NCBI GenBank assembly: GCA_048571215.1
Contig: CP182352.1
Coordinates: 2,272,001-2,336,000, forward strand
Source: Halarcobacter sp.
GTDB lineage: Bacteria > Campylobacterota > Campylobacteria > Campylobacterales > Arcobacteraceae
Length of the DNA stretch: 64,000 nucleotides
Reading direction: 5' to 3'
The notes beneath the pieces were generated by a model, which did not search any database, was not told the origin of the DNA, and saw nothing but the letters and a program-made list of their open reading frames with translations. Both the position numbers and the translations under genes were made by a program. Position 1 is the stretch's first letter. Each line of letters starts with the position of its first letter. This document shows positions 15,101 through 52,585 of this stretch, piece by piece.

Positions 15101-18100
15101 TTTAATGGAAGTGTTGGATTAAAGTTTGTAGATGATAATAGTGTACTAGATTCAAATGGTGTACCAATAGGTGGTGATGGAATTGACCACTTTACAACAG
15201 GTGAAACATATACAGTTGATAATACAGCACCAACTACAATAATATCAAATATAGACATAAGTGCAGATACAGGTACAAGCTCAACAGACTTTTTAACAAA
15301 AACAGCAAGCCAAACTATAACTGCAACCCTTTCAACTGCACTTGCAGGAGGTGAAGTATTATATGGTTCTATAGATGGTGGAAGTAATTGGATAGATATC
15401 ACTTCAAAAGTATCTGGCTCAGCAATCTCTTGGGATGGAGCAACACTAAGTGGAACAAACTCAATAAAACTTAAAGTAACAGATGCAGCAGGAAATGATG
15501 GATCAATAGCTACTCAAAGTTATACTATAGATACCTCTGCTCCAACAGCAAACCTAACAAGTGCAACAGATAATGTAGGAAGTGTAACAGGAGGATTAAG
15601 CTCAGGAGATACAACTGATGATACAAGTTTATTATTAGCAGGTACTAATGAATCAGGTTCAACAGTAAAAGTATATAATGGAACAACTCTTCTTGGAACT
15701 GCAACAGTTACTGGAACATCTTGGACTTATAGTGCTACTATTGCAGATGGTACAACTTATCAATTTAATGTAAAAGAAACAGATAGTGCTGGAAATGAAA
15801 GTACTGCTACTTCTAACTTTACTGTTATTGGTGATACCTCTGCTCCAACAGCAAACCTAACAAGTGCAACAGATAATGTAGGAAGTGTAACAGGAGGATT
15901 AAGCTCAGGAGATACAACTGATGATACAAGTTTATTATTAGCAGGTACTAATGAATCAGGTTCAACAGTAAAAGTATATAATGGAACAACTCTTCTTGGA
16001 ACTGCAACAGTTACTGGAACATCTTGGACTTATAGTGCTACTATTGCAGATGGTACAACTTATCAATTTAATGTAAAAGAAACAGATAGTGCTGGAAATG
16101 AAAGTACTGCTACTTCTAACTTTACTGTTATTGGTGATACCTCTGCTCCAACAGCAAACCTAACAAGTGCAACAGATAATGTAGGAAGTGTAACAGGAGG
16201 ATTAAGTTCAGGAGATACAACTGATGATACAAGTTTATTATTAGCAGGTACTAATGAATCAGGTTCAACAGTAAAAGTATATAATGGAACAACTCTTCTT
16301 GGAACTGCAACAGTTAGTGGAACATCTTGGACTTATAGTGCTACTATTGCAGATGGTACAACTTATCAATTTAATGTAAAAGAAACAGATAGTGCTGGAA
16401 ATGAAAGTACTGCTACTTCTAACTTTACTGTTATTGGTGATACCTCTGCTCCAACAGCAAACCTAACAAGTGCAACAGATAATGTAGGAAGTGTAACAGG
16501 AGGATTAAGCTCAGGAGATACAACTGATGATACAAGTTTATTATTAGCAGGTACTAATGAATCAGGTTCAACAGTAAAAGTATATAATGGAACAACTCTT
16601 CTTGGAACTGCAACAGTTACTGGAACATCTTGGACTTATAGCGCTACTATTGCAGATGGTACAACTTATCAATTTAATGTAAAAGAAACAGATAGTGCTG
16701 GAAATGAAAGTACTGCTACTTCTAACTTTACTGTTATTGGTGATACCTCTGCTCCAACTATTGCAATAACAAGTGATAAAGATGCACTAAAAGCAGGAGA
16801 AACAGCAACAATCACCTTTACCTTAAGTGAAGCAAGTAGTAACTTTGCAAGTGATGATGTAAGTGTAAGTGGAGGAACATTAACAAACTTTAGTGGAAGT
16901 GGAACAAGCTATACAGCAACCTTTACTCCAACTGCAGACTCAACAACTAATGGAACAATTGATATAGCAAGTTCTAAGTTTACTGATGCAGCAGGAAATA
17001 ATAATAGTGCTGCAACTCAAAAATCTATAACAATAGATACAGTAGTGCCAAGTGTAACAATAAGTTCAAGTTCAGATTCACTAAAAGCAGGAGAAACAGC
17101 AACAATCACCTTTACCTTAAGTGAAGCAAGTAGTAACTTTGCAAGTGATGATGTAAGTGTAAGTGGAGGAACATTAACAAACTTTAGTGGAAGTGGAACA
17201 AGCTATACAGCAACCTTTACACCAACTGCAGACTCAACAACTAATGGAACAATTGATATAGCAAGTTCTAAGTTTACTGATGCAGCAGGAAATAATAATA
17301 GTGCTGCAACTCAAAAATCTATAACAATAGATACAGTAGTGCCAAGTGTAACAATAAGTTCAAGTTCAAATGCACTAAAAGCAGGAGAGACAGCAACAAT
17401 CACCTTTACCTTAAGTGAAGCAAGTAGTAACTTTGCAAGTGATGATGTAAGTGTAAGTGGAGGAACATTAACAAACTTTAGTGGAAGTGGAACAAGCTAT
17501 ACAGCAACCTTTACACCAACTGCAGACTCAACAACTAATGGAACAATTGATATAGCAAGTTCTAAGTTTACTGATGCAGCAGGGAATAATAATAGCGCTG
17601 CAACTCAAAAAGTAATAACAATTGATAGTGAAATTCCTTCTGTAGTTATAACAACAGATAAAAATAGTGCAATAAATGGTGAAGTAGTAAACCTAAGCTT
17701 TGCCCTAAGTGAAGATAGTTCAGATTTCACAGTTGATGATATAACAGTATCTGGTGGAACAATAGATAACTTTGAACAAGATAATACAAATTCAAAATTG
17801 TATACAGCAAAACTAACAATAGATAATACTACCACCACAAAAACCACTTTAGATATAAGTGCAAGTAAGTTTGAAGATGCAGCAGGAAACCCAAATAATG
17901 TAGCTTTACAAAAAACTATTACAATCTTGCCAAGTGTATTAACATATACTCCAAGCTTAGATGCAACAGATATAGAACTAGATTCAACATTAGTATTAGA
18001 GTTTAGTGAAAAGTTAAATAAAGGTACTGGAAATATTCTTATAAAAAGATATAGTGATGATAATGTAGTTGAAACAATTGATGTAACAGGTACAAATGTA

Positions 18101-21016
18101 GTTATAGAAAACCCTAACGCAGGAAATAGCCTAACAAATACTCAAGTTACAATCACAAGAACTGTACCATTTACATTAAATACTAAATACTATATAGAGA
18201 TTCCAAATACATCCTTTAAAGATGTTGAAAATAACTTCTATACAGGAATATCTTCAAAAGATAGCTGGAAATTTACTTCTGTAGATAATCATGCTCCAAC
18301 TATCACAAGTGATGGAGGTGGTGCAACTGCAACATTAAATGTAGATGAGAACCAAACAGCAGTAACAACAGTAGTAGCAAGTGATGTTGATAATGGACAA
18401 ACTATAAACTACAGTATTTCAGGAACTGATGCAGCTTCATTTAATATAGATTCCTCAACAGGAGTACTTACTTTTAAAACAGCACCAAATTATGAAGTTA
18501 AAAACTTATATGGTGTTACAGTAACTGCAACAGATAATGGAGGAAATACCTTAAGTGATAGCCAAGATTTAACAGTTAATATAAATGATGTAAATGATGA
18601 CCCTGTAATAACAATAAATAATACATTAACAACAGATGAAGATAATGCAAAAGATTTATTGTTTACTTATACAGATGAAGATTCAAATACAGTAACAGCA
18701 TCTGAAAAGACAGCACCAAGTTATGGGTCAATAGTAATAAGTAGTGATAAAATCACCTATACTCCAAATGCTAACTTTAATGGAAATGATAGCTTTGTTG
18801 TAACCTTAACAGATAATAATGGCTTTAGTGTAGATAAAGCAATAAGTGTAACAGTTAATCCTATAGATGATGCACCAGTTATTACAACTACCTTAGATAA
18901 CCAATCAGAGAATGAAGATGGTAAAGGTTTAGTTATATCGTTAACAACAACAGATGTAGATAATGATTTAAATACAACGCCAGCAACATATAGTGCAACA
19001 TCTTCAGATGAAAATATAGCAACAGCATATATTCAAAATGGAAAATTAATAGTTGTACCAAAACCAAATGCAAATGGAACAGTTACAATTACAGTTACAA
19101 CAACAGTAAATGGGAAAAGTTCAACAAAAACCTTTACCTATACCTTAGTTAGTGTAAATGATGCCCCAACTATTTCAAATATTGCAGATATTTCTCATGA
19201 ACAAAGTTCAAGTGCTATAAATAAAACAATCACCTTTGATATCTGGGATGATGTGGATGTAACAAGCTTAAGTGTAACAAGCTCAAATACAAACTTACTT
19301 CCAAATAGTGATATATCTGTTTCAAAACTATCTTCAACACAAGGTGAGTTAAGTTATACAATTTCTGCAAATAACGCAGGAACAACTACTGTGGAAGTTG
19401 TAGCAAAAGATGCTGAAAATCTAGAGTATAAAGAGAGCTTTAATATAAATGTAAAAGCTTCAAATGATGCTTTATGTGTAGAGAATACAAAAACAACATT
19501 GGTATTTGATACAATAAAAGAGAATAACATCTCTCAAGATGCAATAACATCAAATCTTGATTTGGTTAATACAATAGCTTCAATTTGTAGCTCAACTATA
19601 ACTTGGAGTATCTCAGATACAAGTGTTTTAGATGTAAATGGTATAGTAACTAAAGGTACAACAGATAAAACAGTAACTGCAACAGCAAATATAGCAAAAG
19701 GACAATTTAGTACTACAAAAGTATTCTTGCTTACAATTGTAAAGAATGCAATAAGTGATAGTGAAGCCTTAGATAAACTTCTGTTTGAAAATATAAAAGG
19801 TGATAACCTAAGTAGATTGAAAATCACTTCTAAACTTAACTTGCTAGATACAATCTTAGGTAAAACCATCACTTGGAGTGTAGATGATGATAGTGTAATC
19901 TCACCATACTCAGGATATGTAACAAGAGGTTCAAGCGATACACCTATAGTCTTAACAGCAAAAGTAGGAGCTGAAACGAAAACCTTTAATCTAACAGTTT
20001 TAAAAGATGAAAGTACAAATACAGCTGCTCAAATAGTTGCAAAAGATAAAGAGTTACTAAGTATAGACTCTATTTTAGGAGAGAATAAAGATGATAATAA
20101 TATTATCTATAACCTAGAAAAACCACTTCCAAGCTTAGGTGTAAATGGTTCAACAATAACTTGGAGTAGCTCAAATGAAAACTATATCACAAATGATGGG
20201 GATGTATTAAGAGATGAGAATGCAGATAAATATGTGGTGTTAACAGCAACTATTACAAATGGAAGTGAAACAACTACAAAAGAGTTTATACTAAAAGTTC
20301 TTCAAAATAAAATAGAAACAAATGATGAAACAACTTTTAAAAATGCAAGTGATACTCCAACAGGTACAAGTGTTACAACAACAAATAATGGTAGTGATAC
20401 AACAACAGAGGCAAGCTTTACTAATACAATTTTAAATATTGTAGAAAAAGTGGTATCTCAAGATAGTATAAACAATATTATTGAGTTTGCACAAAAAATA
20501 GTAAATGTATACCTAAATACAGATGGAACTTCTCAATCAACACTGCAAAATCAAGATGGAACAAGTTCTTCTATAGAAACACAAACTAAAGGTTCAACTA
20601 CAAATGTAGATGATAGTGGAAATGTTCAAACAACAAATGGTAGTGTAACTCTAAAATTAAATAGTGATGGAACAGTTACCCATGAAGTTACAAAAGGAGC
20701 TTTAAAAACAACAGCAGACTCTACAATCTCTGGTTCAAATGTAAAAGAGGATGGAAGTGGTAATGTTGAAACCACCTCAGAAGTTACTCAAGGTGGATTT
20801 GTATATAAAGCAGTTGTAACAACAAATAGTCAAGGGGAAACTACTACTAAGTTTGTAAAAGTAGATTTATCTACAGGGGAACAAAGTGAAGTTGATAAAA
20901 CAATAAGTGATACAACCCCATATCAAGCAGGAAATAAAGTAGAGATTAGTAAAGTAAATGGTGTTTTATATATTAAAACAACAACTCCACTTGATGGTAG
21001 TATAGTAATTGAATAA
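12101..21016 (+). CDS. Giant (~2,970 aa) secreted/surface adhesin-like protein: FG-GAP repeats, multiple bacterial Ig-like, cadherin-like and tandem-95-like domains
   Basis: GGAG RBS at 12091 before ATG 12101; signal-peptide-like N-terminus ending TSLSA; five xDxDxDGDxD FG-GAP repeats; Ser/Thr-rich Ig repeats; 'DAAGN' motifs; cadherin-like DENQT/PNYE. Confidence 0.88.
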   Translation: MNFKNKTISKIVSNILFKDMNKNILTIMSTGIIVTSLSANGPFVSGTNPLSSVSYSQQTAPTFGDLDGDGDLDALIGAWDGKLYYYINNGTKKSPSFSSSTMPSGLPSTYAGLTQMPAIGDIDNDGDFDVAIARQETNTTASSSIVYYKNNGDGTFSSFSPSGLPTSTGEKWGTLTFADVDQDGDQDLFMAHGKGGGLSYYKNNGSGNFSTATAPSGMPSGVSYPIFTFGDVDGDGDLDMFHGEYKNTEIEYYRNNSGTFNLVALNTAFPSSDLTNPGTSSTPWLMPNLVDIDNDGDLDLFIGNYAKAGNNVGIIYRENSATSLSSISPSDNSTNVSIDTNLVLTFSSAVNVNSGNIYIKKTSDNTLVETIDVTSGQVTGSGSTTITINPSSDLSNGIEYYVLTDSTAFINASTSSAVTGISDTKFWSFTTVSAPSTDSDTTLTASATVTEPVSLSTTVDTVGEAVDLFDFTITDGGSGDTLSTDISQIVLNTSGTGDFSKVTWRLNGPDATNVTGAYNSSTNTITFSGLSLSITDGGNETYTVNGYFNNNTGLTEDQTFILSVDGDTDLTLDASKTQMTGSNNPITNGGGTTVDVTATKLTFSTEPSTTVVSGSTFSTQPVIKAVDESGNVDIDFSSNIILSENGAGSLGGTTTVVASSGVVTFSGISYNAVSDSDSNFTITASATGLTSDTSNSINPDVVATKLVFTTQPSPTSLQNSVQTDFVTDPVVEARDANDILDIDYYNSVTISENGAGTGSFTNNSTNASGGVATFTGLTLSHNADETFKLVATGGDSISGTSSNLTVTSNNAPVTTLPSAPTIHEDATNVAFANTIQITDGDSDNQTVTLSATNGTLSLTPTGLSFTTGDGTDDATMTFSGTLAAVNTALDSLTFSPTADYDGSASLRVQTNDGNGGTDDDTLNLSVLNAPEITSIVRGTPSSQNTNADSLTFYVYLDSNITTDATAADFQVIGTTTATVTSVTRQSIYYEVVVSGGNLASFNGSVGLKFVDDNSVLDSNGVPIGGDGIDHFTTGETYTVDNTAPTTIISNIDISADTGTSSTDFLTKTASQTITATLSTALAGGEVLYGSIDGGSNWIDITSKVSGSAISWDGATLSGTNSIKLKVTDAAGNDGSIATQSYTIDTSAPTANLTSATDNVGSVTGGLSSGDTTDDTSLLLAGTNESGSTVKVYNGTTLLGTATVTGTSWTYSATIADGTTYQFNVKETDSAGNESTATSNFTVIGDTSAPTANLTSATDNVGSVTGGLSSGDTTDDTSLLLAGTNESGSTVKVYNGTTLLGTATVTGTSWTYSATIADGTTYQFNVKETDSAGNESTATSNFTVIGDTSAPTANLTSATDNVGSVTGGLSSGDTTDDTSLLLAGTNESGSTVKVYNGTTLLGTATVSGTSWTYSATIADGTTYQFNVKETDSAGNESTATSNFTVIGDTSAPTANLTSATDNVGSVTGGLSSGDTTDDTSLLLAGTNESGSTVKVYNGTTLLGTATVTGTSWTYSATIADGTTYQFNVKETDSAGNESTATSNFTVIGDTSAPTIAITSDKDALKAGETATITFTLSEASSNFASDDVSVSGGTLTNFSGSGTSYTATFTPTADSTTNGTIDIASSKFTDAAGNNNSAATQKSITIDTVVPSVTISSSSDSLKAGETATITFTLSEASSNFASDDVSVSGGTLTNFSGSGTSYTATFTPTADSTTNGTIDIASSKFTDAAGNNNSAATQKSITIDTVVPSVTISSSSNALKAGETATITFTLSEASSNFASDDVSVSGGTLTNFSGSGTSYTATFTPTADSTTNGTIDIASSKFTDAAGNNNSAATQKVITIDSEIPSVVITTDKNSAINGEVVNLSFALSEDSSDFTVDDITVSGGTIDNFEQDNTNSKLYTAKLTIDNTTTTKTTLDISASKFEDAAGNPNNVALQKTITILPSVLTYTPSLDATDIELDSTLVLEFSEKLNKGTGNILIKRYSDDNVVETIDVTGTNVVIENPNAGNSLTNTQVTITRTVPFTLNTKYYIEIPNTSFKDVENNFYTGISSKDSWKFTSVDNHAPTITSDGGGATATLNVDENQTAVTTVVASDVDNGQTINYSISGTDAASFNIDSSTGVLTFKTAPNYEVKNLYGVTVTATDNGGNTLSDSQDLTVNINDVNDDPVITINNTLTTDEDNAKDLLFTYTDEDSNTVTASEKTAPSYGSIVISSDKITYTPNANFNGNDSFVVTLTDNNGFSVDKAISVTVNPIDDAPVITTTLDNQSENEDGKGLVISLTTTDVDNDLNTTPATYSATSSDENIATAYIQNGKLIVVPKPNANGTVTITVTTTVNGKSSTKTFTYTLVSVNDAPTISNIADISHEQSSSAINKTITFDIWDDVDVTSLSVTSSNTNLLPNSDISVSKLSSTQGELSYTISANNAGTTTVEVVAKDAENLEYKESFNINVKASNDALCVENTKTTLVFDTIKENNISQDAITSNLDLVNTIASICSSTITWSISDTSVLDVNGIVTKGTTDKTVTATANIAKGQFSTTKVFLLTIVKNAISDSEALDKLLFENIKGDNLSRLKITSKLNLLDTILGKTITWSVDDDSVISPYSGYVTRGSSDTPIVLTAKVGAETKTFNLTVLKDESTNTAAQIVAKDKELLSIDSILGENKDDNNIIYNLEKPLPSLGVNGSTITWSSSNENYITNDGDVLRDENADKYVVLTATITNGSETTTKEFILKVLQNKIETNDETTFKNASDTPTGTSVTTTNNGSDTTTEASFTNTILNIVEKVVSQDSINNIIEFAQKIVNVYLNTDGTSQSTLQNQDGTSSSIETQTKGSTTNVDDSGNVQTTNGSVTLKLNSDGTVTHEVTKGALKTTADSTISGSNVKEDGSGNVETTSEVTQGGFVYKAVVTTNSQGETTTKFVKVDLSTGEQSEVDKTISDTTPYQAGNKVEISKVNGVLYIKTTTPLDGSIVIE
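15530..16758 (+). repeat. Four near-identical 303-bp (101-aa) tandem Ig-like repeats within the giant protein
   Basis: GATACCTCTGCTCCAAC recurs at 15530, 15833, 16136, 16439 and 16742 (period 303). Confidence 0.97.
16787..17630 (+). repeat. Three near-identical 294-bp (98-aa) tandem Ig-like repeats (LKAGETATITFTLSE type)
   Basis: CTAAAAGCAGGAGA recurs at 16787, 17081 and 17375 (period 294); a diverged fourth copy follows. Confidence 0.95.
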
Positions 21017-41672: not shown

Positions 41673-41694
41673 CGTCACATTTCCGTCACAAATT
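41673..41694. promoter_or_regulatory. CGTCACA-N4-CGTCACA direct-repeat box (left copy)
   Basis: cgtcaca-tttc-cgtcaca-aatt, between divergent pspA-like and recombinase genes; second copy at 52566. Confidence 0.6.
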
Positions 41695-41809: not shown

Positions 41810-42739
41810 ATGGATATAACAAAAACGATTGAGGATTTTTTATTTCATTGTATATATGAAAAAAATCTAAGTGAAAAGACAATTAAAGCATATAAAATAG
41901 ATTTAAATCAATTTAAAAAATTTAATACTTGTAAAAACATAAAAGATATAGATAAATATACCTTAAAGGAGTATCTAAAACTATTATATGAAAAAAAACT
42001 AAAAGAGAAAACTATAAAAAGAAAGTTTGCAACGCTTAAAGCTATGTTTACTTACCTTGAGTTTGAAGAATATATTTTAGTAAGTCCATTTAGAAAAATG
42101 AAACTAAGTATAAAAGAACCTCAAAGACTTCCTAAAACAATAGAATTAAAAGAGATAAAAAAGCTTTTTATTTATGTATATAAATTAAAAAATCAGTTCA
42201 AAAATAAAAATACCTATACATACAAAAGTATCATAAGAGATATAGCTGTACTAGAACTGCTTTTTGCAACAGGTGTAAGAGTAGCAGAAGTTTGTGACAT
42301 AAAAACAAAAGATTTCAGCTCAAACTTTAGTGAACTTAAAATCATAGGAAAAGGAGACAAGCAAAGAACAATACATATCTGTAACAATGAAGTAAAAAAT
42401 GCCCTAAAAGAGTATCAACTTTTCTTCAAAGAAAAGATAAAAAAAGACGACAACTTTTTTATAAATAGATTCAATAAAAAATTATCAGAACAATCAGTTA
42501 GATTTATGATTAGAAAATATCAAGAACAAAGTAAAATAGAAAAACATCTAACCCCACATATGTTCCGCCATAGCTTCGCCACTCTACTTTTAGAAGAAGG
42601 AGTAGATATACGATATATCCAACATATGCTAGGACATAGTTCAATATCAACCACACAAATATATACAAAAGTAAGTCTGAAACATCAAAAGAAAATTTTA
42701 AATACCAAACATCCTAGACGAAGTTTTGAAGTAGATTAA
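41810..42739 (+). CDS. Tyrosine recombinase/integrase (XerC/D-like)
   Basis: N-terminal SAM-like domain; catalytic R (TGVRVAE), K (GKGDK), HxxR (PHMFRH), H (LGH) and Y (TQIYT) all present. Confidence 0.95.
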
Positions 42740-42780: not shown

Positions 42781-42807
42781 AAGGATAATAGGATATTATG
42801 AATAATA
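42781..42807 (+). repeat. Left copy of a perfect 27-bp inverted repeat (AAGGATAATAGGATATTATGAATAATA)
   Basis: Exact reverse complement of 52481-52507; contains the RBS and ATG of the 42798 ORF. Confidence 0.97.
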
Positions 42808-45221
42808 GAGAAAATAATTTATTACTTTTAGTTGTAGGTTTAGGAGGTGCTATTGGTACAACTTTAGCATCAGGTTTTGCAATACCGAATAGTGAATCAA
42901 AATTAGGTTTAATGACAGAGAATCCATTAATAAAGTCATTAGGTATAAAATTTATTACTTCAAAAAATATTACACTTAGTGGTTGGGATATTAATCAAAA
43001 AAATCTTTTTGATATTGCTAGCGAATTAAAAATTGTTCCTGCTGAAAGACTACTTCAATCAAAAAGATACTTATCTTCAATTAAACCGCGTCCAGGCATT
43101 ACAAGAAAACATAATCTAAAAGAATGGTTTTATACAGAAATTGAACAATTAAACATATTAATAGAACAGACTCAATCTGATCAAGTTATAGTTTTAAATC
43201 TTCTTCCTACAGAACCAAATTATTTACAAGTAGATAAAGAGATAGATTGGGATAGTCTTGGTTCCATTTCATTAGAAACAGAGGAAGTGACTCTAAGTAG
43301 ATTATATTTTAAATTAGCTATAGAGTTGGGAGCTCATTATATTAACTTCACTCCAAATAATGCAGAAACTACACAATTGCAAAAACAAGCAATTTCCAAA
43401 AATCTAATTTTTTGTGGTAGAGATGGAAAAAGTGGACAAACATTTTTAAAAACTGTATTAGCACCTGCATTTTATCAACGTAACTTTAAGATTAATGGTT
43501 GGTATAGTACAAATCTATTAGGGAATAAAGATGGCTTAGCACTTGCTGATCCTGTAATATTTGAAACAAAAAGACAATCTAAATCCAAATGTTTAGAAGA
43601 TATAATAGGCTATGCACCAGGTGGAATAGAAGAAGCTTCATATGGACATCAGGTTCATATACACTATTATCCTCCAAGAAAAGATGCAAAAGAATCATGG
43701 GATAATATTGATTTTAGTGGTTATTTTGGTGAAGAGATGCAGTTAAAACTAAATTGGTTAGGAAAAGATTCTATTTTAGCTGCACCTATGGCATATGATC
43801 TTGTTAGAATAGTAGAGTTAAGTTCAAGGTTTAGTATAAAGGGTATTATCGAAGAAACAGGTGTATTTTTTAAAACACCTCTTTATAAATCAAAATATCC
43901 AATACACTCTTTTCCTACACAATTTGAAAATCTTTTAAAATACCTAAAAAAACTCAAATTAAATGACAATGCTTCTATTCATAATGATTGGCTGGATATA
44001 TTAAAAATATCTCCGCTATCTTCTCAAACAGGAATATACTTACATGCTTCAGAAAATATGCTCCCATATTCAGCTCGTTTAGCTCAAGCTTTAGAAGCTA
44101 TAGAGAGATACTCTTTAAAACCTCACGAGAAGTTTGAAGACAATGATATATATTTTGCAAATAATATCCCATTGCAAAAAGTCAAACAAAATTTGATAGA
44201 TAAATTTCAAGAAGTTCTATCTAGCTCTTGGGTAAGTGTGTCTGCTTTATCTGGGTTACATGCCACAGAAATATGCTTTAATTCATTTGTGAAATTAGAT
44301 GATGATGTATTTATTGTTTCTCCAAAACATGGTGGACATCCATCTATGGAACCTTTACTTAAAAGTATGAATGTAAATGTGCATTTTCTACCTTTTTTAG
44401 AAAATCAACTTATTGATGTAAATAAATTAAAAGATATGATATATAGTATAAAACCTGTTTTAATTGTATTTGATATTAGTGATTCTTTAAGAGAACAGGA
44501 TTTAGATTTTATAAAAGATATTAAAGGTAAATCTATAATTTTATTTGATGTATCCCAAACTTTAGGATTAATTATTGGAAAATCATTAACTAACCCTTTA
44601 GATAAAGGAGTAGATATTATAATAGGTACTACTCACAAAACATTTCCAGGTCCCCACAAAGCTATAATCGCTTCAAATAATAAAAAAATAGCAGAAAAAA
44701 TAGAAAATACAATCTCCATAAAAGTTAGTAGTGATCATACAGATCATATATTGAGTTTAAATGCTGCTTTAGATGAATTTCTACCCATAGCTGAAGAATT
44801 TGCAGAACAATGTAAAATAAATATTCAACTTTTTGCAAAGCTACTTAAAACATATAATATTAATGCTATTGATAGTGTTCCTTTAGATACTCATCAAATT
44901 TGGGTAATTTTTTTAGATCCTGAAGAAGCAAAAAAAGCTTATTTAGATTTAGAAAAAGCAGGTATATTTACAAATCTTAGAAAACTACCATTTAACTATG
45001 GATGGGGACTTAGAATAGGACTTCATGAAATAACACTAAGAGGTTTTAAAGAAGAAGATATAAAACAATTAGCAAAACTTTTTTCTAAAATTATCATAGA
45101 AAAAGTAGAACCATTAGAAGTCAGAGACCATGTAATTAAGTTAATAGAAAACCTTGTTCCATTATTAAAAACAAAGACTCCATTGAGTGAATTTTTACAA
45201 AAACATTTACTAGGAGAATAA
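42798..45221 (+). CDS. Fusion: myo-inositol-1-phosphate synthase (N) + SHMT-like/threonine-transaldolase-like PLP enzyme (C)
   Basis: MIPS motifs VGLGGAIGTT, INFTPN, GRDGKSGQT, WYSTNLLGNKDG, DSILAAP; SHMT-fold motifs LHASEN, SGLHA, HGGH, TTHKTFPGPHK, THQ, GLRIG. Confidence 0.88.
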   Translation: MNNRENNLLLLVVGLGGAIGTTLASGFAIPNSESKLGLMTENPLIKSLGIKFITSKNITLSGWDINQKNLFDIASELKIVPAERLLQSKRYLSSIKPRPGITRKHNLKEWFYTEIEQLNILIEQTQSDQVIVLNLLPTEPNYLQVDKEIDWDSLGSISLETEEVTLSRLYFKLAIELGAHYINFTPNNAETTQLQKQAISKNLIFCGRDGKSGQTFLKTVLAPAFYQRNFKINGWYSTNLLGNKDGLALADPVIFETKRQSKSKCLEDIIGYAPGGIEEASYGHQVHIHYYPPRKDAKESWDNIDFSGYFGEEMQLKLNWLGKDSILAAPMAYDLVRIVELSSRFSIKGIIEETGVFFKTPLYKSKYPIHSFPTQFENLLKYLKKLKLNDNASIHNDWLDILKISPLSSQTGIYLHASENMLPYSARLAQALEAIERYSLKPHEKFEDNDIYFANNIPLQKVKQNLIDKFQEVLSSSWVSVSALSGLHATEICFNSFVKLDDDVFIVSPKHGGHPSMEPLLKSMNVNVHFLPFLENQLIDVNKLKDMIYSIKPVLIVFDISDSLREQDLDFIKDIKGKSIILFDVSQTLGLIIGKSLTNPLDKGVDIIIGTTHKTFPGPHKAIIASNNKKIAEKIENTISIKVSSDHTDHILSLNAALDEFLPIAEEFAEQCKINIQLFAKLLKTYNINAIDSVPLDTHQIWVIFLDPEEAKKAYLDLEKAGIFTNLRKLPFNYGWGLRIGLHEITLRGFKEEDIKQLAKLFSKIIIEKVEPLEVRDHVIKLIENLVPLLKTKTPLSEFLQKHLLGE

Positions 45222-45222
45222 A

Positions 45223-45966
45223 GTGGCGATGAAAAAAGATATAAAAGTATTTATTGCTTCAACAGGAACGCAAATTTATAGAGAAAAAGCTAAAGAATTA
45301 GCTGAAAGTTTAGCTAAGCATTTTACAATTTATTTTTGGGAAGATGTTTTTGAACCAGGAGATACAAATATAGAAGCATTAGAAAAAGCTGTAAAAAACT
45401 GTGATTATTCTGTAGCTTTTTTAAGTAGTGAAGATTTAACTGTGAAAAGTGGGATTGAAAACCTTCAACAAAGAGACAACCTTATCTTTGAATTTGGTTT
45501 ATTTACTGGTGCTTTAGGTAGAAAAAGAAAATTTGGAGTAACCTTTGGTAGAGGTAGTGAAATAAGCTTACCTTCAGATTTAAATGGCTTAGTTTTAATA
45601 AAAGAAAATATCAACTCACATAATTTAATAAGTGATATTTCTAATAAAATTTTAGATTGTATTCAAGAGTTAGGATTCAAAGATAAAGATAATAAAGAAG
45701 TATATTTTTTATATGATTCATATAAAGTATTTGAACTCACTCCAAAGTGTATTGATATATTTGAAAAATTATTTAATAACTTTTTAAGTATTAGAACTTA
45801 TATTGAGAGAATTATTAATATATATCTATTAAATAGTATACCTGAAATTATTATGGATAAAATGTTTGTAGGTTTCCTATATTATATAGGTGATGGCATT
45901 AAAATAACTCAAAATAATACTAATAACTCTCTTGTATATTTTTGTAAAGATAGTGCAATAGCATGA
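45223..45966 (+). CDS. TIR-domain protein (CAP12/Pycsar-type predicted nucleotide-binding TIR) with unknown C-terminal region
   Basis: KVFIAS, W..VF.PG...IEAL, RDNLIFEFGLFTGALGRKR (catalytic Glu present), LPSDLNG. Confidence 0.88.
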   Translation: MAMKKDIKVFIASTGTQIYREKAKELAESLAKHFTIYFWEDVFEPGDTNIEALEKAVKNCDYSVAFLSSEDLTVKSGIENLQQRDNLIFEFGLFTGALGRKRKFGVTFGRGSEISLPSDLNGLVLIKENINSHNLISDISNKILDCIQELGFKDKDNKEVYFLYDSYKVFELTPKCIDIFEKLFNNFLSIRTYIERIINIYLLNSIPEIIMDKMFVGFLYYIGDGIKITQNNTNNSLVYFCKDSAIA

Positions 45967-45976
45967 GAAAAGATAA

Positions 45977-47164
45977 ATGAATATACCTAAGTGGCCAAGA
46001 ACAGATAAAATGGGGGAAAAGTATATTTTAGATGTCTTAGCTTCTAATCAATGGGGAGCAACGGGAATAAGATGGAGAAAAAAATCATATGAAACAAAGT
46101 TCACCAATAAATTTGCAAGTTATAATAATAGTCCATATTGCCTAACTACGTTAAATGGATCTACAGCTATAGAGTTAGCTCTTTTAGCTTTAGGCATAAG
46201 AAAAGGAGATAAGGTTTTAGTCACTGCACTTACTTGGGTATCTTGTGCTACTGCTATATTATCAGTAGGTGCCATTCCTATATTTATTGATATAGATAAG
46301 TCAAATTTATGTATGGATATTGCTAAAACTAAATATGCATTAAAAAAATATAAAAAGTGTAAAGCAATTTTATTGGTTCATGCTTATTGTAGTATTGCTC
46401 CAATTGAAGAATTTATAAAACTTACAAAAAAATATAAAGTACATTTAATAGAAGATTGTTCCCAAAGTCATGGTGCTAAATATAAGAACCAATTGTGCGG
46501 TTCATTTGGAGTATGTGGTATATTTAGTATGCAAAGTTCAAAAGTATTATCAAGTGGTGAAGGAGGTGCAATAATATTTCAAAAACAAAAATATTATACT
46601 AAAGCTCAAAAACTTAGACTTGATGGAAGAGTTCCTTCAAATTTTCCTATCGGACAAACCCTTGTTAAAACTTATAATCCTATAAGTGGTAGAAATAGAA
46701 CTATTACAGAGTTTCAACATGCATTACTACTTAGAGGGTTAGAGTTATTAGATAGTGAAAACAGTATAAGAACAAAAAATGCTTCATATTTAGGAGATAT
46801 TTTATCACAATATAATATTTCATATTTTTTTCAAAAGAGTAAAAAAGTACTTCCATCATTTTATAGATTTATATATTTTTTTGATAAAGAAAAAATGTAT
46901 GGAAATGATATTGATGAACATATTGAATATTTAGTAAAAAATGGTATACCAGCAGAAAGAGTTCATATACCTATACCTTTAAATCGTGCTATTCCAAAAA
47001 ATTTACAAAAAAATAAAAAATTTGTAAAAGATAATTTTCCTATTTCATTAGAAATTTATAATAGTTGTGTGACATTAGCTCATCAATGTTTACTCATGGA
47101 TGGAGTTAATATAACTGAACTATCAAAATACATAATAGAAGATAAAGTAGATAATTTTGAATAG
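45977..47164 (+). CDS. DegT/DnrJ/StrS aminotransferase, BtrR/StsC (inosose aminotransferase)-like
   Basis: N-terminal WP...VL.SNQW..G, GSTA, LTW, IEDCSQSHG, FSMQSSKVL..GEGG, LR.D.R. These match my recollection of the BtrR subfamily. Confidence 0.85.
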   Translation: MNIPKWPRTDKMGEKYILDVLASNQWGATGIRWRKKSYETKFTNKFASYNNSPYCLTTLNGSTAIELALLALGIRKGDKVLVTALTWVSCATAILSVGAIPIFIDIDKSNLCMDIAKTKYALKKYKKCKAILLVHAYCSIAPIEEFIKLTKKYKVHLIEDCSQSHGAKYKNQLCGSFGVCGIFSMQSSKVLSSGEGGAIIFQKQKYYTKAQKLRLDGRVPSNFPIGQTLVKTYNPISGRNRTITEFQHALLLRGLELLDSENSIRTKNASYLGDILSQYNISYFFQKSKKVLPSFYRFIYFFDKEKMYGNDIDEHIEYLVKNGIPAERVHIPIPLNRAIPKNLQKNKKFVKDNFPISLEIYNSCVTLAHQCLLMDGVNITELSKYIIEDKVDNFE

Positions 47165-47873
47165 AAATATAAATCTATCATGTATTGAAATAGAGATTAA
47201 TACAAAATGTAATTTTAAATGTTCTTATTGTCCCTCATCATTTAACAATGTAAAAAATTCATATATGTCTTTTGAAAAATATAAGATTATAATTGATAAG
47301 TTAAAACAAGTTGACTTTAATGGTAGATTATCATTTCATTTTTACAATGAACCTACTTTGCACCCTGATCTTGAAAAATTTATAAAATTTTCCTCAAAAG
47401 AACTTCCTAAAGCATTATTGAGACTATATACAAATGGATCAAGATTAAACGATAAGCTTTATTGTAGATTATCAAATGCTGGTGTGGATCAATTCTATGT
47501 AACACTTCATAAACAAACCCCTAATCTACCTACAAGACCAAAGCAGGTAGTAAGAGAATTGAGTAACATAGATATTACAAATAGAGGAGGTTCATTGCAT
47601 AGTATTAATAATCATTTAGAGATACCTTGTATGCTTCCTCAAGAGTTCTTATTATTTGATATAAATGGAAATGCACTAATGTGTTTTGAAGACTATTATA
47701 AAACTGAAATATTTGGAAATATTTTTATAGATTCTTTAGAAAAAATTTACTTCAATACTAGATTAGAAATATTTCGTAAACATCTATCTCTAGGAGATAG
47801 AACAATTTGTAATATTTGTAAAAAATGTGATAGCAAAGCTTATCAAAAACTAGGTCAGGTATATATAGAATGA
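47157..47873 (+). CDS. Radical SAM/SPASM-twitch enzyme, BtrN (2-deoxy-scyllo-inosamine dehydrogenase)-like
   Basis: CNFKCSYC; DFNGRLSFHFYNEP, YTNG, NRGG, CMLP, CFED and C-terminal CKKC as recalled for BtrN; similar length (238 aa). Confidence 0.85.
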   Translation: MNRNINLSCIEIEINTKCNFKCSYCPSSFNNVKNSYMSFEKYKIIIDKLKQVDFNGRLSFHFYNEPTLHPDLEKFIKFSSKELPKALLRLYTNGSRLNDKLYCRLSNAGVDQFYVTLHKQTPNLPTRPKQVVRELSNIDITNRGGSLHSINNHLEIPCMLPQEFLLFDINGNALMCFEDYYKTEIFGNIFIDSLEKIYFNTRLEIFRKHLSLGDRTICNICKKCDSKAYQKLGQVYIE

Positions 47874-48820
47874 ATACAACTTTAGAAATATGGCCAGCAA
47901 AATGGTTACAAAATATTCATTGGACATTTTGGGAAGAAACAGTTAAAAACAATTTTGGCTTAAATAGTCCATTTTTTGATATTAATTTTTTTAAAAGTAT
48001 TATATCTTATCAACCCTATAGTTATAGTATGGTATTTAAATCTAAAGGGGGTATTATTGCTATGTTACCTTTTGAAGTGGCTACAAAAAATAGAGCAAGA
48101 CTTTTATCTCCAGATATAGTAGGACTACATGGACTTATAATTCATAAAGACAATTTAAATAAAATTGATTTAAAAACTGCCATAAAAAAAGCTGGATTAA
48201 GATATTTACTCTTTGATCAAGTTCCTGGATGGCAAAGTACTTTTAATCCTTTTACAAGAATAGAAGATAATGCACCAAATCTAATACTTTCAAAAAGTAT
48301 TGAACGCACTAAAGTAAGTTGGAAAAACTCTGGGCAAAATACATTTGTAAATATAGATTTTAAGACTAGAAAACTTGAGAAAAAAGGTAGGCTTACTTAT
48401 ATATTTGATACAGTATCTCCTTTACTTTTTAGATATTTATCTTTAAATAAACAAAATCAATTTTATAAAACAGGTGAAGAGAATCTTTTTAGTACTAAAG
48501 AGTTTCAATCTATTTTAAATTATTTAAAAATAAATAAATCAAACAATTGTAAACTGGTCCTTTCAGCTCTTTATTTAGATAATATTCCAATAGCTGCACA
48601 TTTAGGATTATCTTCTAAAAAGACTTTTTATTCTTGGTATCCTGTGATGGATAAAAAAATAGGAAATGATTCCCCTGAATTAGTGTTATTTGGATATATT
48701 ATAAATACTCTCCATAAAAAAGGTTACAAAGTTTTAGATTTTGGCACTCAACCTATGCTTTATAAAACAAGATTGAGCAACTCCTCTTATAAAATAAAAA
48801 GAGGACTTATTCGCCCTTAG
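47870..48820 (+). CDS. GNAT family acyltransferase (CelD/BcsL-like)
   Basis: SPFF, RKLEK.G, LSALYLD..PIAAHLG, SWYP, SP, LDFG, YK..L motifs. Confidence 0.8.
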   Translation: MNTTLEIWPAKWLQNIHWTFWEETVKNNFGLNSPFFDINFFKSIISYQPYSYSMVFKSKGGIIAMLPFEVATKNRARLLSPDIVGLHGLIIHKDNLNKIDLKTAIKKAGLRYLLFDQVPGWQSTFNPFTRIEDNAPNLILSKSIERTKVSWKNSGQNTFVNIDFKTRKLEKKGRLTYIFDTVSPLLFRYLSLNKQNQFYKTGEENLFSTKEFQSILNYLKINKSNNCKLVLSALYLDNIPIAAHLGLSSKKTFYSWYPVMDKKIGNDSPELVLFGYIINTLHKKGYKVLDFGTQPMLYKTRLSNSSYKIKRGLIRP

Positions 48821-51800
48821 TTACTCTAAGAATTTCTCTTGCCATTTCTTCAAAATATGTGTCAAAGTCATAAGTTTTAAATATTTTTTCGTACCAATTA
48901 AAAAATAATTCTAAGTGTTTACATGAGTCATTTAGTAAAAAGTATTTTGCTATTTCATCATGATCCCATTCTTGACCTGAAATATCTAAGTCAAGTTTAT
49001 TAGCTAATTTATCAATTTCAACATATAAATCATAATACTTTTCTTTATTTAAAACAAACTTTACTTTTTTAGGATAAATTTGAGCCATTCTAGCTAATGT
49101 CTCTTTTATCCAATATTCTGGAATTATATTTTCATCTTTTATTTTTAAAACTTCAAGTATAGCTTTAAGAGATGCATCTGGAAATATACGAATCATCTTT
49201 CTTATGGATAAAAAGTTTAGTTTTGTATATTTTACATCTATTGCTTTTGGGACTTTTTTTAATTCTTTTGCTTCCATAACATTTTTAATTCCTTTTGAAA
49301 ATATTGGTATTTCATTATCATAATTATACAAAAGTCCCTCTATCATAGCAACTTGATTCATGGGATTATATGTTTCATTAAGCGGATTTTCACATGATAA
49401 TGTTAAGAAAAAATTCTCTGGCTGAGTTTCTTCAAAATAATACATCCATTCTTCCATTTCATTTAATATTTTTTGACAACCATCTCTATCATTTTTATCA
49501 AGTTTAAATATGGCTATTCTTTGTGCTAAGCATAATGCAGCATCTATTGAAAAGTAAAAATTTGACTTAATAAAATGTCTTAATATCCCCATACCCACTT
49601 CAGAATCAAAATACGCAGATTTTAATATACAATATCTAGCTAATATGTGTTCTATTCTATATGAATATAAAGTTGGATTACTTTTTGTCATGTCCGCTGG
49701 TTCTTTAACATCTGAACAAAAGAACCTCAATATTTCAATTTCACTATTATTAAGTTCATCTTTATTACAAACTTTTTTATACATATTTCGTAGTTGTTTT
49801 GCATAATTCTCAACATCATCACTCATTTTCCATAGATATTCTAAATGGTTATGATTTGCATCTAATGAAAAGAAATTATCAGCATAGTTTTTAATAGACA
49901 ATATAAAACTATTTATTAAATTATTTTCAAAATTAATTTTATTGGTTGAACTATTTATAACTCTATTTAGTGTATAAAGTATATTTTTTCCTATATCTCC
50001 ATCTAATTTAATACTTTTATCAAAATAAATTGATAATACAAAAATCAAACCTACCAATTGTTCTGATGTTATCGATGAGTTTTTTGCAAAATAACTTTCA
50101 AATTTAGAAAGCAGTTTTCCTCTTCTACTTGGAGTTAAAAAGTTTAAATAGATACCATATCTTGACTTTTCATACCATTTTTTATTTCCGCTTAATATAG
50201 TTTCAATTAAAAAACTTACAGCATGTAAATTATCTGAACAATACTCAACTATAAATTCTAAGAACTGTTCTTTGTCGTTAAAAGCTTCTTCAATAAAATC
50301 AAAGCCTTCACCACCATTTTCAACTAGAATTTCTTGCAAAGTATCTTTTATTAGAAGTTTTACATCATTATTTTCAATATTTAAAAGCTCTCTTAGTCTT
50401 GATATATCTGTAAGTAATGAACTTCTATTTGGTGAGTCAATGTAATTACAGCTAATATTCACTAGTGCAGATTTTAAACCTTGTATTAAATGAAACTCTC
50501 CTTTTGACTCATTTAAAATATTAACGATTTTAGAAGTGTCAAACCCCTCATCTAATTCATAAAGTTCTATAATAGATAAACCCAAAATATACTCAAAAAA
50601 TCTATCATATGTAAAACTATATCTATCATTATGAGAGCTGGTTTTATTGATTATTCTTTCATCATACAAAATATCATAAAAAGTTTTTTCTTGATCTTTT
50701 TGAGGAAATAATGATACTAAACTTTCATCAAAAGAAAATTGTTTTTTAGAAGTATTATACCCCATTGTTTGTTTTAAAAATCTACTACCTAATGATTTTA
50801 ATATTCTTTCAAACATAAACTTCTTTGGTAGTTTTTCTAAATACATTTTAAAAATAGAAAAAGCAGGTGCATATTTTGGAATTGTATCATTATTATACGC
50901 TCTTGCCATAAGATTCATTAATAGTGGATCAGATAAATGTTCTTTAAAATGCTCATCAAGACTTTCCCACTCACCTAATAAATTATAGGCTCTTTTATAT
51001 GATTTAAAAGCTAAAGGAGCCTCTTCTTTATTATATTTTTCTATTTTAAAAATTTTACTATGATGATAAAACTTAGTTATATTAGATGAATTATGCTCCA
51101 TTTGATTCCAATATATCTCTCTGCATGAAAATAGAATTTTTATTCTATCTCTTAAAACACCATCTAAAGCTAGATTTTCTATCTCTTTTTTTAGATTGCT
51201 AGGTGTAATTGTAGTAAATTCATTTATTGCATCAATTTGTATTAAAAGATTTAAATTATTTAGCTCTAAATAAGCATTTAGTGCAGAAAACCAAGTATCT
51301 TTTAAGTAAGGTTTAAATGTAAATTTTTTACTTAAGTATTCTAATAAAGAATTGTTATTATCAAAACTCTCTGGCTCTATTGTTAACGTTAAAAAAGAAC
51401 TACATTCATATCTTTTCATTGTATTATAATATATATATGTAGATTTACCCATCCCAGCTTCACCAACTAATGCAAAAATTTTAGAGTCATTTTTTAAAAA
51501 ATCATTATAGGAGTTGTTTACAGATATTCTTTCTATCAAAGTATCCATACCACCATCTGGAATTTTAGATTCTAAATTTGATAAAGCAGAATTATTAATA
51601 TTTTTTAACTTTTGTAATAAGTTTTCTTCTTCGGCATATAATCTAAATTCTTGATGGTTACTTATATACTTTAAATATTTCTCTTTAATAGGGTTATTAT
51701 TGTTAATATGGGAAAAAGTTTCTTTCATAAATTCTGAAAAATAGTATCCTAAGGTTATATATTCTCTATTTAGAAAATGATTTGTTCTGTTTTTTTTAGA

Positions 51801-52490
51801 CATGACATATACAGGGTTTTTAGTACTTTGATCTATAAACTCAAACAAAGGCTTATCTTGAAAAGAATAACCTATGGATAATATAGGATTTAAGAATATG
51901 TCAGTTAAAAACTCTTTAACTGATTCTTGAAAACTCATTTTTTCACTTCTAAATACAGCTTCAACATATGATAAATCACCCCATAAATGAGCAATAACTA
52001 CTTTATTGTTATTTAGTTGTTCTTTGATTTTAGCTATATTTTCAGTATGATTATCATCTCTTGTAAAAGAAATAGATTTTATGCTTTCATCATTCATACA
52101 AACAGCTTTGTGTGCATCTTCAAGAAGATCGTCATAGTTTGTAGTAAGGATAATTGTAGAATAACCATTTCTTTCCCTTACTCTTGCTAGACAAAAAGAT
52201 AAAAATTCAATATGCACTGAATTGGGGTGTCCGACTAATTTAGTTTCACATTCATTTTGAATATCTTTTTCATATTTATTTAAAAATTCATCAAATTTAT
52301 TTTCTAATTCATCTTTTGTTAAATTATGATAACCATATCGATTTAGGATATCTTCTTTAATTTCAGTATATGATGGTATTTTCTCACCATTTTCTTTTAT
52401 TCCTTCAGTTGATGCGCCCGCACCAACTAAAATTGTCAAAGTACCTTTATAGCTTATCAAGTTTTCAATAATTTCTTCTATATTATTCAT
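48807..52490 (-). CDS. SIR2-like domain + STAND/NACHT NTPase + long helical C-terminus (Avs-like candidate anti-phage protein)
   Basis: ILVGAGAS, LTTNYDDLLE and IGYSFQD (SIR2-like); GEAGMGKS Walker A, IQIDAINE Walker B, FSCR, PLLM, FTYDRFFEY (STAND). Confidence 0.85.
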   Translation of the reverse strand: MNNIEEIIENLISYKGTLTILVGAGASTEGIKENGEKIPSYTEIKEDILNRYGYHNLTKDELENKFDEFLNKYEKDIQNECETKLVGHPNSVHIEFLSFCLARVRERNGYSTIILTTNYDDLLEDAHKAVCMNDESIKSISFTRDDNHTENIAKIKEQLNNNKVVIAHLWGDLSYVEAVFRSEKMSFQESVKEFLTDIFLNPILSIGYSFQDKPLFEFIDQSTKNPVYVMSKKNRTNHFLNREYITLGYYFSEFMKETFSHINNNNPIKEKYLKYISNHQEFRLYAEEENLLQKLKNINNSALSNLESKIPDGGMDTLIERISVNNSYNDFLKNDSKIFALVGEAGMGKSTYIYYNTMKRYECSSFLTLTIEPESFDNNNSLLEYLSKKFTFKPYLKDTWFSALNAYLELNNLNLLIQIDAINEFTTITPSNLKKEIENLALDGVLRDRIKILFSCREIYWNQMEHNSSNITKFYHHSKIFKIEKYNKEEAPLAFKSYKRAYNLLGEWESLDEHFKEHLSDPLLMNLMARAYNNDTIPKYAPAFSIFKMYLEKLPKKFMFERILKSLGSRFLKQTMGYNTSKKQFSFDESLVSLFPQKDQEKTFYDILYDERIINKTSSHNDRYSFTYDRFFEYILGLSIIELYELDEGFDTSKIVNILNESKGEFHLIQGLKSALVNISCNYIDSPNRSSLLTDISRLRELLNIENNDVKLLIKDTLQEILVENGGEGFDFIEEAFNDKEQFLEFIVEYCSDNLHAVSFLIETILSGNKKWYEKSRYGIYLNFLTPSRRGKLLSKFESYFAKNSSITSEQLVGLIFVLSIYFDKSIKLDGDIGKNILYTLNRVINSSTNKINFENNLINSFILSIKNYADNFFSLDANHNHLEYLWKMSDDVENYAKQLRNMYKKVCNKDELNNSEIEILRFFCSDVKEPADMTKSNPTLYSYRIEHILARYCILKSAYFDSEVGMGILRHFIKSNFYFSIDAALCLAQRIAIFKLDKNDRDGCQKILNEMEEWMYYFEETQPENFFLTLSCENPLNETYNPMNQVAMIEGLLYNYDNEIPIFSKGIKNVMEAKELKKVPKAIDVKYTKLNFLSIRKMIRIFPDASLKAILEVLKIKDENIIPEYWIKETLARMAQIYPKKVKFVLNKEKYYDLYVEIDKLANKLDLDISGQEWDHDEIAKYFLLNDSCKHLELFFNWYEKIFKTYDFDTYFEEMAREILRVTKGE

Positions 52491-52507
52491 AATATCCTAT
52501 TATCCTT
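52481..52507 (-). repeat. Right copy of the perfect 27-bp inverted repeat
   Basis: TATTATTCATAATATCCTATTATCCTT is the reverse complement of 42781-42807; contains the RBS and ATG of the SIR2-STAND gene. Confidence 0.97.
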
Positions 52508-52517
52508 TATTTAATAT

Positions 52518-52536
52518 ATTATAAAATAATCTTAAT
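52518..52536 (-). promoter_or_regulatory. Probable sigma70 promoter reading into the right inverted repeat
   Basis: Minus strand reads ttaagattatttTATAATatattaaata-AAGGATAATAGG...; TATAAT at 52523-52518, 10 bp outside the repeat. Confidence 0.6.
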
Positions 52537-52565: not shown

Positions 52566-52585
52566 CGTCACAAATTCGTCACATT
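52566..52585. promoter_or_regulatory. CGTCACA-N4-CGTCACA direct-repeat box (right copy)
   Basis: cgtcaca-aatt-cgtcaca-tt, same orientation and 11-bp period as the 41673 copy. Confidence 0.6.

Follow-up and report, generated by a model that had tools for sequence, protein, structure and literature searches.

The 64,000-nucleotide stretch of the Halarcobacter sp. genome considered here (contig CP182352.1, positions 2,272,001 to 2,336,000; hereafter, the window) contains an invertible DNA segment of 9.7 kb in which a five-gene operon predicted to serve aminocyclitol-type biosynthesis lies opposite a convergent gene for a STAND NTPase, flanked by short inverted repeats and preceded by a gene for a Xer-like tyrosine recombinase. 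Both orientations of this cassette exist in the sampled population, and the pairing of such enzymes with a STAND protein recurs in distant bacteria. An earlier note on this DNA had described a five-gene aminocyclitol unit with an embedded TIR gene. While its genes are real, its boundary was drawn too small, the repeats, the convergent STAND gene, and the recombinase having been overlooked. The operon alone misses the system; the whole unit includes the recombinase, its sites, and the STAND gene.

Both orientations of the invertible segment

The longest inverted repeat of the island has one arm at the start of the MIPS gene, the first of the operon, and the other where the STAND gene begins. 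Its perfect core of 27 bp occurs in only two copies genome-wide, and these cover the ribosome-binding site (RBS) and start codon of both genes. Within the left copy lies a 17-bp site, GATAAT-AGGAT-ATTATG, with the Shine-Dalgarno sequence as its spacer and the start codon of MIPS in its right arm; its general form is GATAA[CT]-N5-ATTAT[CG], which we take to be dif-like. The window has two such sites against 0.24 expected, a number reached in 2 of 100 shuffles. Genome-wide, the motif is at chance level (19 matches versus 19.6 expected) and forms only two inverted pairs, both located beside a Xer paralogue and around a convergent enzyme/ATPase pair. The recombinase retains all of its catalytic motifs (R, K, HxxR, H, and Y) and scores below the XerC and XerD cut-offs. 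The locus has the parts of a site-specific inversion switch: the asymmetric spacers of the two inverted sites match, and an intact recombinase gene adjoins them, whose product would perform the flipping.

Evidence for both states comes from contigs of four sequencing runs (X1 to X3 and one more) on two sediment samples from one study, assembled as k=31 unitigs, with X1 and X2 representing sample S1. The unitigs break exactly at the repeats in all four runs, and the cassette forms a single 9727-nt unitig in X1 to X3. Because 31-mers span a 27-bp repeat, the graph would break there only if it contained both junctions. Bridges of 33 nt, as expected at k=31, were recorded in X1 and X2 for both kinds of junction, with 33/33 letters matched for the reference orientation and 30/33 for the flipped one. 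In X1, the reference and flipped depths were 35 versus 12.7 at one junction and 21.2 versus 13.5 at the other (flipped share, 0.32); in X2, they were 6 versus 3 and 2 versus 5 (flipped share, 0.50); and X3 had reference bridges only, among the matches listed. Two long-range joints in the read data, with sides of 20-22 nt, were treated as noise.

Orientation probably decides which half is expressed, placing either the aminocyclitol pathway or the NLR-like protein behind one promoter. A promoter fixed outside the distal site would transcribe the half turned towards it, i.e., the STAND gene in the reference (commoner) state and the enzymes when flipped. The half next to the recombinase, whose first gene begins 58 nt after the recombinase stop codon with no terminator found between them, would be read only together with the recombinase gene. 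This assignment is suggested by the position of the proximal gene and from the distal promoters that face the STAND gene. For example, the promoter outside the distal site of the related locus L116 is TTGACA-17-TATAAT (12/12 of the sigma-70 consensus) and that of L110 scores 11/12, both pointing into the STAND gene, and a TATAAT lies 13 nt before the distal site in the window and in a relative, G093. A promoter scan of the island as a whole gave chance-level results (78 versus 80.8). The genome has 13 GTCACA-N5-GTCACA boxes, one of them at the distal promoter of the cassette and another at 41674-41690, upstream of the pspA-yqiJ-flotillin operon, hinting that envelope stress may control the cassette. 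These boxes were also considered as attachment sites and were ruled out by their 13 genome-wide copies and by the chromosomal location of the left box.

Enzymes, partner protein, and their relatives

The five open reading frames (ORFs) of the operon lie where the earlier note had placed them, all on the plus strand and tightly coupled as it had claimed, with intergenic gaps of 1 or 10, 10, -8, and -4 nt. Pfam families agree with its reading: PF01658 (MIPS; 1.7e-30), PF00464 (SHMT-like; 1.8e-18), PF10137 (TIR, residues 8-127; 8.9e-22), DegT aminotransferase, radical SAM plus SPASM, and GNAT PF13480. Matches and motifs identify the aminotransferase as BtrR-type and the radical SAM enzyme as BtrN-type, as the same note had proposed. 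The best PDB matches of the former are L-glutamine:2-deoxy-scyllo-inosose aminotransferases (2c7t, 5e-68; range 5e-68 to 1e-59), the next enzyme class matching at 6e-33. In a 75-row tree, it falls on a long branch within a clade (support 100) of enzymes from 2-deoxy-scyllo-inosose (DOI) synthase or MIPS clusters, with four sugar-aminotransferase paralogues of the host outside that clade, and its pyridoxal phosphate (PLP) lysine, K189, is invariant in 9/9 sequences. In the PDB, the radical SAM enzyme matches BtrN alone (2e-39), and the CxxxCxxC motif, one four-cysteine auxiliary cluster, and the BtrN active-site motifs are all present. Searches with BtrN gave no close match in 183 genomes of the family and one weak match only in viral contigs. 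The GNAT and STAND proteins had no informative PDB sequence match, and an Rfam search returned none.

In established pathways, glucose-6-phosphate is turned into an inosamine or streptamine by MIPS, oxidation of the BtrN type, and transamination of the BtrR type, which here would require an inositol phosphatase from the host. Here, MIPS would supply inositol-1-phosphate for dephosphorylation by a host enzyme, radical oxidation and transamination would then yield scyllo-inosamine or streptamine, and the GNAT-fold enzyme would decorate the product, its counterpart in relatives being a kinase, methyltransferase, or carbamoyltransferase. Glycosyltransferase, exporter, and phosphatase genes are all absent from the island, as judged from the ORF list and Pfam domains and as the earlier note had recorded.

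Alignment scans with BtrN covered GTDB genomes (best 80 of 111 matches, 77 loci) and JGI metagenomes (best 80 of 116, 77 loci), and 152 BtrN loci were analysed, L092 and L094 having been left out. A BtrR-clade gene is present in 39 of these, a convergent STAND gene in 11, a Xer-like gene in eight, and the 17-bp site in ten; 13 loci, from other phyla, have one or more of the STAND gene, the Xer-like gene, and the site, and show the switch layout in whole or in part. L110 and the near-identical pair L115 and L116 encode MIPS, BtrR, two BtrN proteins, and a kinase, with a methyltransferase in L115 and L116, and in all three the SIR2-like STAND protein of the window has an orthologue over its full length, at 26-27% identity. 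L012 (Devosiaceae), L027 (Acidobacteriota), L085, L095, L097, L099, L100, and L102 possess BtrR and BtrN, mostly with a GNAT or carbamoyltransferase, and their STAND protein, which has a restriction-endonuclease-like N-terminus, is unrelated to that of the window. Two unrelated STAND families are therefore each paired with BtrR/BtrN; the stretches of L126 and L138 end before any STAND gene could show. The 17-bp site forms a reverse-complement pair in seven of its ten loci (L012, L027, L085, L097, L110, L115, and L116), stands at one end in L100, L126, and L138, occurs as a one-base variant in L102, and is absent from the 1.69 Mb of the remaining BtrN loci. Neither DOI synthase nor a GT4 glycosyltransferase was found in any of the 11 STAND-paired loci, GT4 being present in the controls L044 and L235. 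The defence link drawn by the earlier note is supported by these STAND pairings and by the neighbours of two relatives: L085 adjoins CBASS-type genes (E1-E2, SAVED-endonuclease, and TIR_2) and L027 adjoins a CapP-like gene.

Other BtrN loci have different settings. L044 (Solidesulfovibrio) and L158 combine MIPS or GT4 with BtrR, BtrN, an NpmA-type 16S methyltransferase, and several radical SAM genes, and probably represent an uncharacterised aminoglycoside cluster in an anaerobe. Proteobacterial clusters with DOI synthase and BtrN, found in L010-L018 (Xenorhabdus and Photorhabdus), L235 (a Sodalis plasmid), L031, and L049, contain glycosyltransferase or transporter genes. A large, separate BtrN-like clade (L015-L082, many of them Bdellovibrionota), often beside DegT and carbamoyltransferase genes, probably serves surface glycans. 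In L006:6354-8390, BtrR and BtrN share one 678-aa ORF, a possible fusion.

The earlier note had made the TIR a defining member of the system, a view that the relatives do not support: no Cap12-type TIR or SHMT-like domain was found in any of the 152 loci, including L110, L115, and L116, and the conserved partner is the convergent STAND gene with its recombinase switch. Homologous operons thus lack the TIR, as that note had listed among findings that would speak against it, and yet retain the defence context that it had named alongside. On this evidence, the TIR is accessory, and both it and the SHMT-like domain read as local additions to the system. The TIR keeps the Cap12 motif RDNxxFEFGLF; its C-terminus of ~95 aa was without homologues in 14 candidates of comparable length and in plasmids, and a single-sequence fold of this region (pLDDT 38.5) was not usable, such that the TIR may be a fragment. 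The MIPS-SHMT fusion is not an artefact, given that full-length fusions recur in five relatives, P0001-P0004 (among the 120 matches listed) and P0244; none was found in viral contigs. The SHMT-like domain of the window protein keeps the PLP lysine (TTHKTFPGP), which relative P0004 has lost. It falls below the canonical SHMT threshold (158 bits versus a cut-off of 335 for NF000586) and scores alike against fluorothreonine transaldolase and threonine transaldolases. Two ordinary paralogous SHMT matches lie elsewhere in the genome, and a search of 400 genomes of the phylum gave weak matches only. The best plasmid match of this domain was set aside, as it sits in an unrelated cluster.

The STAND protein possesses Walker A and Walker B motifs and an all-helical predicted C-terminus (pLDDT 60.6, from three sequences), whose structural matches are weak and of generic ARM/HEAT type (TM up to 0.31). 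Its SIR2-like domain keeps GAGAS and TTNYD, with the Asn retained. In all five sequences compared, two of them SIR2-CHAT proteins, W or F (Trp in the window protein) replaces a His that we take to be the catalytic residue of the K-L-H-G motif of SIR2 NADases. The loss of this His suggests that the domain may act as an adaptor. No full-length Avs profile match was obtained for the window protein, and its L110 orthologue matches Avs2 profiles over the NTPase region only (1e-14). Just outside the cassettes of L110 (3812-5377) and L116 (371-1969) lies a gene for a caspase-like SIR2-CHAT protein with an intact His-Cys dyad, whose SIR2-like domain is a close paralogue of that of the STAND protein.

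The locus and related recombinase cassettes

Table 1. Features of the invertible cassette and its immediate surroundings (window coordinates).
Feature	Coordinates	Strand	Remarks
Xer-like tyrosine recombinase, putative invertase	41810..42739	+	309 aa from ATG; PF00589 5.8e-39
Left, recombinase-proximal inverted repeat, 27 bp	42781..42807	+	17-bp site at 42784-42800; unitig break 42807/42781
MIPS (aa 1-385) fused to SHMT-like PLP domain (aa ~400-790)	42798..45221	+	807 aa
Cap12/Pycsar-type TIR with ~95-aa orphan C-terminus	45223..45966	+	accessory; not kept in relatives
BtrR-type PLP aminotransferase (2-deoxy-scyllo-inosose aminotransferase clade)	45977..47164	+	
BtrN-type radical SAM dehydrogenase	47157..47873	+	CxxxCxxC and four auxiliary-cluster cysteines invariant
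GNAT-fold (PF13480) tailoring transferase	47870..48820	+	same family in L012, L085, L099
SIR2-like + STAND NTPase + ARM/HEAT-like solenoid	48807..52490	-	1227 aa; convergent partner inside invertible segment
Right, distal inverted repeat, 27 bp	52481..52507	-	holds RBS and start codon of STAND gene; unitig break 52507/52481
Putative -10 box TATAAT of fixed promoter outside distal repeat, pointing into cassette	52518..52523	-	predicted from sequence
GTCACA-N5-GTCACA direct repeat upstream of distal promoter	52567..52583	unassigned	probable response-regulator box

The earlier note had placed the operon inside a defence-like island. In this genome, the island is instead a lone insertion with pspA on one side and uvrD on the other, and no larger defence island surrounds it; the proteins of the genome point to a host of Arcobacteraceae type (Campylobacterota). 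The same site was compared in five relatives (G092, G093, G100, G102, and G103): pspA and uvrD are directly adjacent in G100 and G103 and ~500 bp apart in G092, and uvrD was not in the fetched stretch of G102. In G093 (L175:3445-5016), a recombinase ~90-91% identical and the same sites occupy this chromosomal position with another cargo of two genes, a 247-aa membrane protein opposite a methyltransferase, indicating that either the cargo between the sites has been exchanged or the element has inserted twice. Elsewhere in the window, a 2991-aa ORF is present at 12041-21016.

The recombinase subfamily of the window occurs in 22 of 184 genomes of the family. Of its 24 matches outside this genome (G000) and G093, 20 were fetched, and site pairs, sought with a relaxed motif, were found in ten of the 20 stretches. 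These delimit 11 cassettes, seven convergent, three with co-directional restriction-modification genes, and one with a single gene. Among the convergent cassettes, four place an ATP-grasp ligase opposite an NTPase, pentapeptide, or large protein of unknown kind, and three place a methyltransferase opposite a GNAT or membrane protein. Homologous cassettes stand in opposite orientations in L211/L213 and in L175/L216. Outside the window, the second Xer paralogue of this genome (64%; G000:C1:2229250-2233462, i.e., L178:7251-11463) has its own inverted site pair, in which a 707-aa ATPase-TPR gene faces the recombinase with an ATP-grasp ligase gene convergent to it, and insertion sequence and mobilisation genes lie nearby. 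Restriction-modification pairs are found between inverted sites of the same kind in L216:9110-14740, L217, and L226, L216 holding two tandem cassettes behind a single recombinase. A tree of the Xer proteins did not resolve a single origin for all switch recombinases.

Competing explanations and known systems

With roughly even confidence, we read the locus as a recombinase-gated two-state defence cassette in which an aminocyclitol, or a mark derived from it, is read by the STAND protein, and in which the switch keeps the two halves apart. The product, free or protein-attached, would be sensed by the partner STAND protein, and the effector would fire only when the halves meet, either just after induction of the recombinase or when a producer meets a receiver cell. 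In one STAND family, the effector would be the restriction-endonuclease-like domain; here, the His-less SIR2-like domain would probably recruit a partner, such as the caspase-like SIR2-CHAT protein in L110 and L116 or, possibly, the TIR NADase in this genome. A more tentative proposal, which we consider less likely than not, makes an aminoglycoside-core aminocyclitol the dedicated ligand for an NLR-like receptor, with the DNA flip splitting producers from receivers or arming and then triggering the receptor. If enzymes and receptor are indeed coupled, the product would be an immune messenger that is not a nucleotide and would stand for a new class of small molecules in immunity, aminoglycoside-core chemistry would gain a role outside antibiotics, and a family of recombination-gated enzyme/receptor pairs would come into view, which would also explain solitary recombinases in defence islands.

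Several observations weigh against this two-state reading. Its chemistry, coupling, and anti-phage role are predictions from the genes, and no further defence genes adjoin this locus. The large flipped fraction implies that neither state kills; moreover, all contigs stem from a single study, which may also have yielded this genome, and a mixture of two strains, each locked in one orientation, would look alike. An ARM/HEAT-like C-terminal fold usually binds proteins rather than small molecules. The 13 switch-type loci collapse in the tree to ~4 independent lineages plus the window, the family-wide promoter tally is weak (11/14 distal versus 7/14 proximal), and the three co-directional restriction-modification cassettes among the 11 indicate that the switch does not always hold an enzyme/receptor pair. 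Finally, STAND genes without BtrN were sought in 400, 400, and 390 other genomes, and in viral contigs and plasmids, with none found, a search that checks the dependence of STAND on BtrN in one direction only.

The two halves could also be independent defences under phase variation, joined by co-inheritance only, with the flipped state producing an anti-phage aminocyclitol and the unflipped state an Avs-like STAND protein acting as the sensor of a phage protein. An ARM/HEAT-like C-terminus would be apt for sensing proteins, the NTPase region of the L110 orthologue matches Avs2 profiles, both states are common, and aminoglycosides are anti-phage (PMC12360287). This explanation is nonetheless rather unlikely, as the link to BtrR/BtrN is shared by two STAND families that are unrelated to each other, the combination of enzyme and partner is specific to each family of sister cassettes, and the anti-phage compounds of the cited work are glycosylated antibiotics, whereas the island has no exporter or glycosyltransferase. 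Alternatively, the aminocyclitol may restrain a toxic STAND protein until phage interference or a flip lifts the restraint, in the manner of Panoptes. A constitutive signal held against a toxic effector is a known design according to the Panoptoo abstract, and in the reference orientation the enzymes could be made by read-through from the recombinase gene, behind which no terminator was found. However, it is the STAND gene that faces the putative promoter, both in the commoner state of this cassette and in L110, L115, and L116, and the toxin would be left unguarded, making such an arrangement improbable.

A self-contained five-gene pathway centred on the TIR, in which the TIR uses NAD+ to make an ADP-ribosyl-aminocyclitol signal or antiviral and the STAND gene is unrelated, would account for the translational coupling of the TIR within the operon and its intact Cap12 catalytic motif, and five MIPS-SHMT fusions exist whose neighbourhoods have not been seen. 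Against a STAND gene in 11 of the BtrN loci and a TIR in none, a TIR C-terminus lacking homologues of similar length, and a STAND gene located inside the same invertible segment, this pathway seems very improbable. We consider it scarcely probable that the cassette has no defence role at all and is a phase-variable secondary-metabolite or selfish addiction cassette on a mobile Xer element. Cargo has been swapped at one site (another cassette in G093, empty sites in G100 and G103), and MIPS, BtrR, and BtrN also occur together in ordinary clusters (L044, L086, and L098); the partners, however, bear nuclease-like, SIR2-like, and caspase-like domains, and the neighbours include CBASS, restriction-modification, and DarTG genes.

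A search of the full-text literature found no description of an aminocyclitol/STAND switch. Papers from the Aravind lab reportedly mention tyrosine-recombinase-linked convergent conflict genes, such that the general architecture may already be predicted in print. To our knowledge, all known messengers of bacterial immunity derive from nucleotides or NAD, and the NLR-like proteins described in bacteria recognise proteins of phages. Relative to Avs, the window protein shares the effector-STAND-repeat architecture and differs in having no full-length match, in lacking the SIR2 His, and in that STAND here always lies opposite a biosynthetic operon in a switch. The TIR resembles CBASS Cap12 and Pycsar PycTIR in family, motif, and the logic of signal plus effector, without the STING domain, cyclic nucleotide (cNMP)-binding domain, or cyclase of those systems, and none of the seven island proteins matched the ThsA or ThsB profiles of Thoeris. 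The enzymes are closest to butirosin BtrR/BtrS and BtrN (PDB 2c7t and 4m7t), sharing the cluster cysteines and the SFHFY, NRGG, CFED, LTW, and SxQxxK motifs. Unlike in butirosin synthesis, MIPS replaces DOI synthase here and the genes lie inside a STAND-bearing invertible cassette; the glycosyltransferase, exporter, and self-resistance gene that are hallmarks of aminoglycoside gene clusters are lacking at this locus. Lanthipeptide anti-phage clusters in defence islands (PMC12360287) likewise use biosynthesis in defence, with other chemistry and with no receptor or inversion switch described. Finally, programmed DNA inversions are well exemplified by Salmonella Hin and phage Mu Gin (reviewed in PMC8987985), and inversion by PinQ has been linked to phage defence (PMC12529663). 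As in those systems, a neighbouring recombinase would flip a segment and change expression; in contrast to them, the recombinase here is of the tyrosine rather than the serine type, the sites overlap both start codons, and the choice lies between a biosynthetic operon and an NLR-like protein rather than among versions of a single surface protein.

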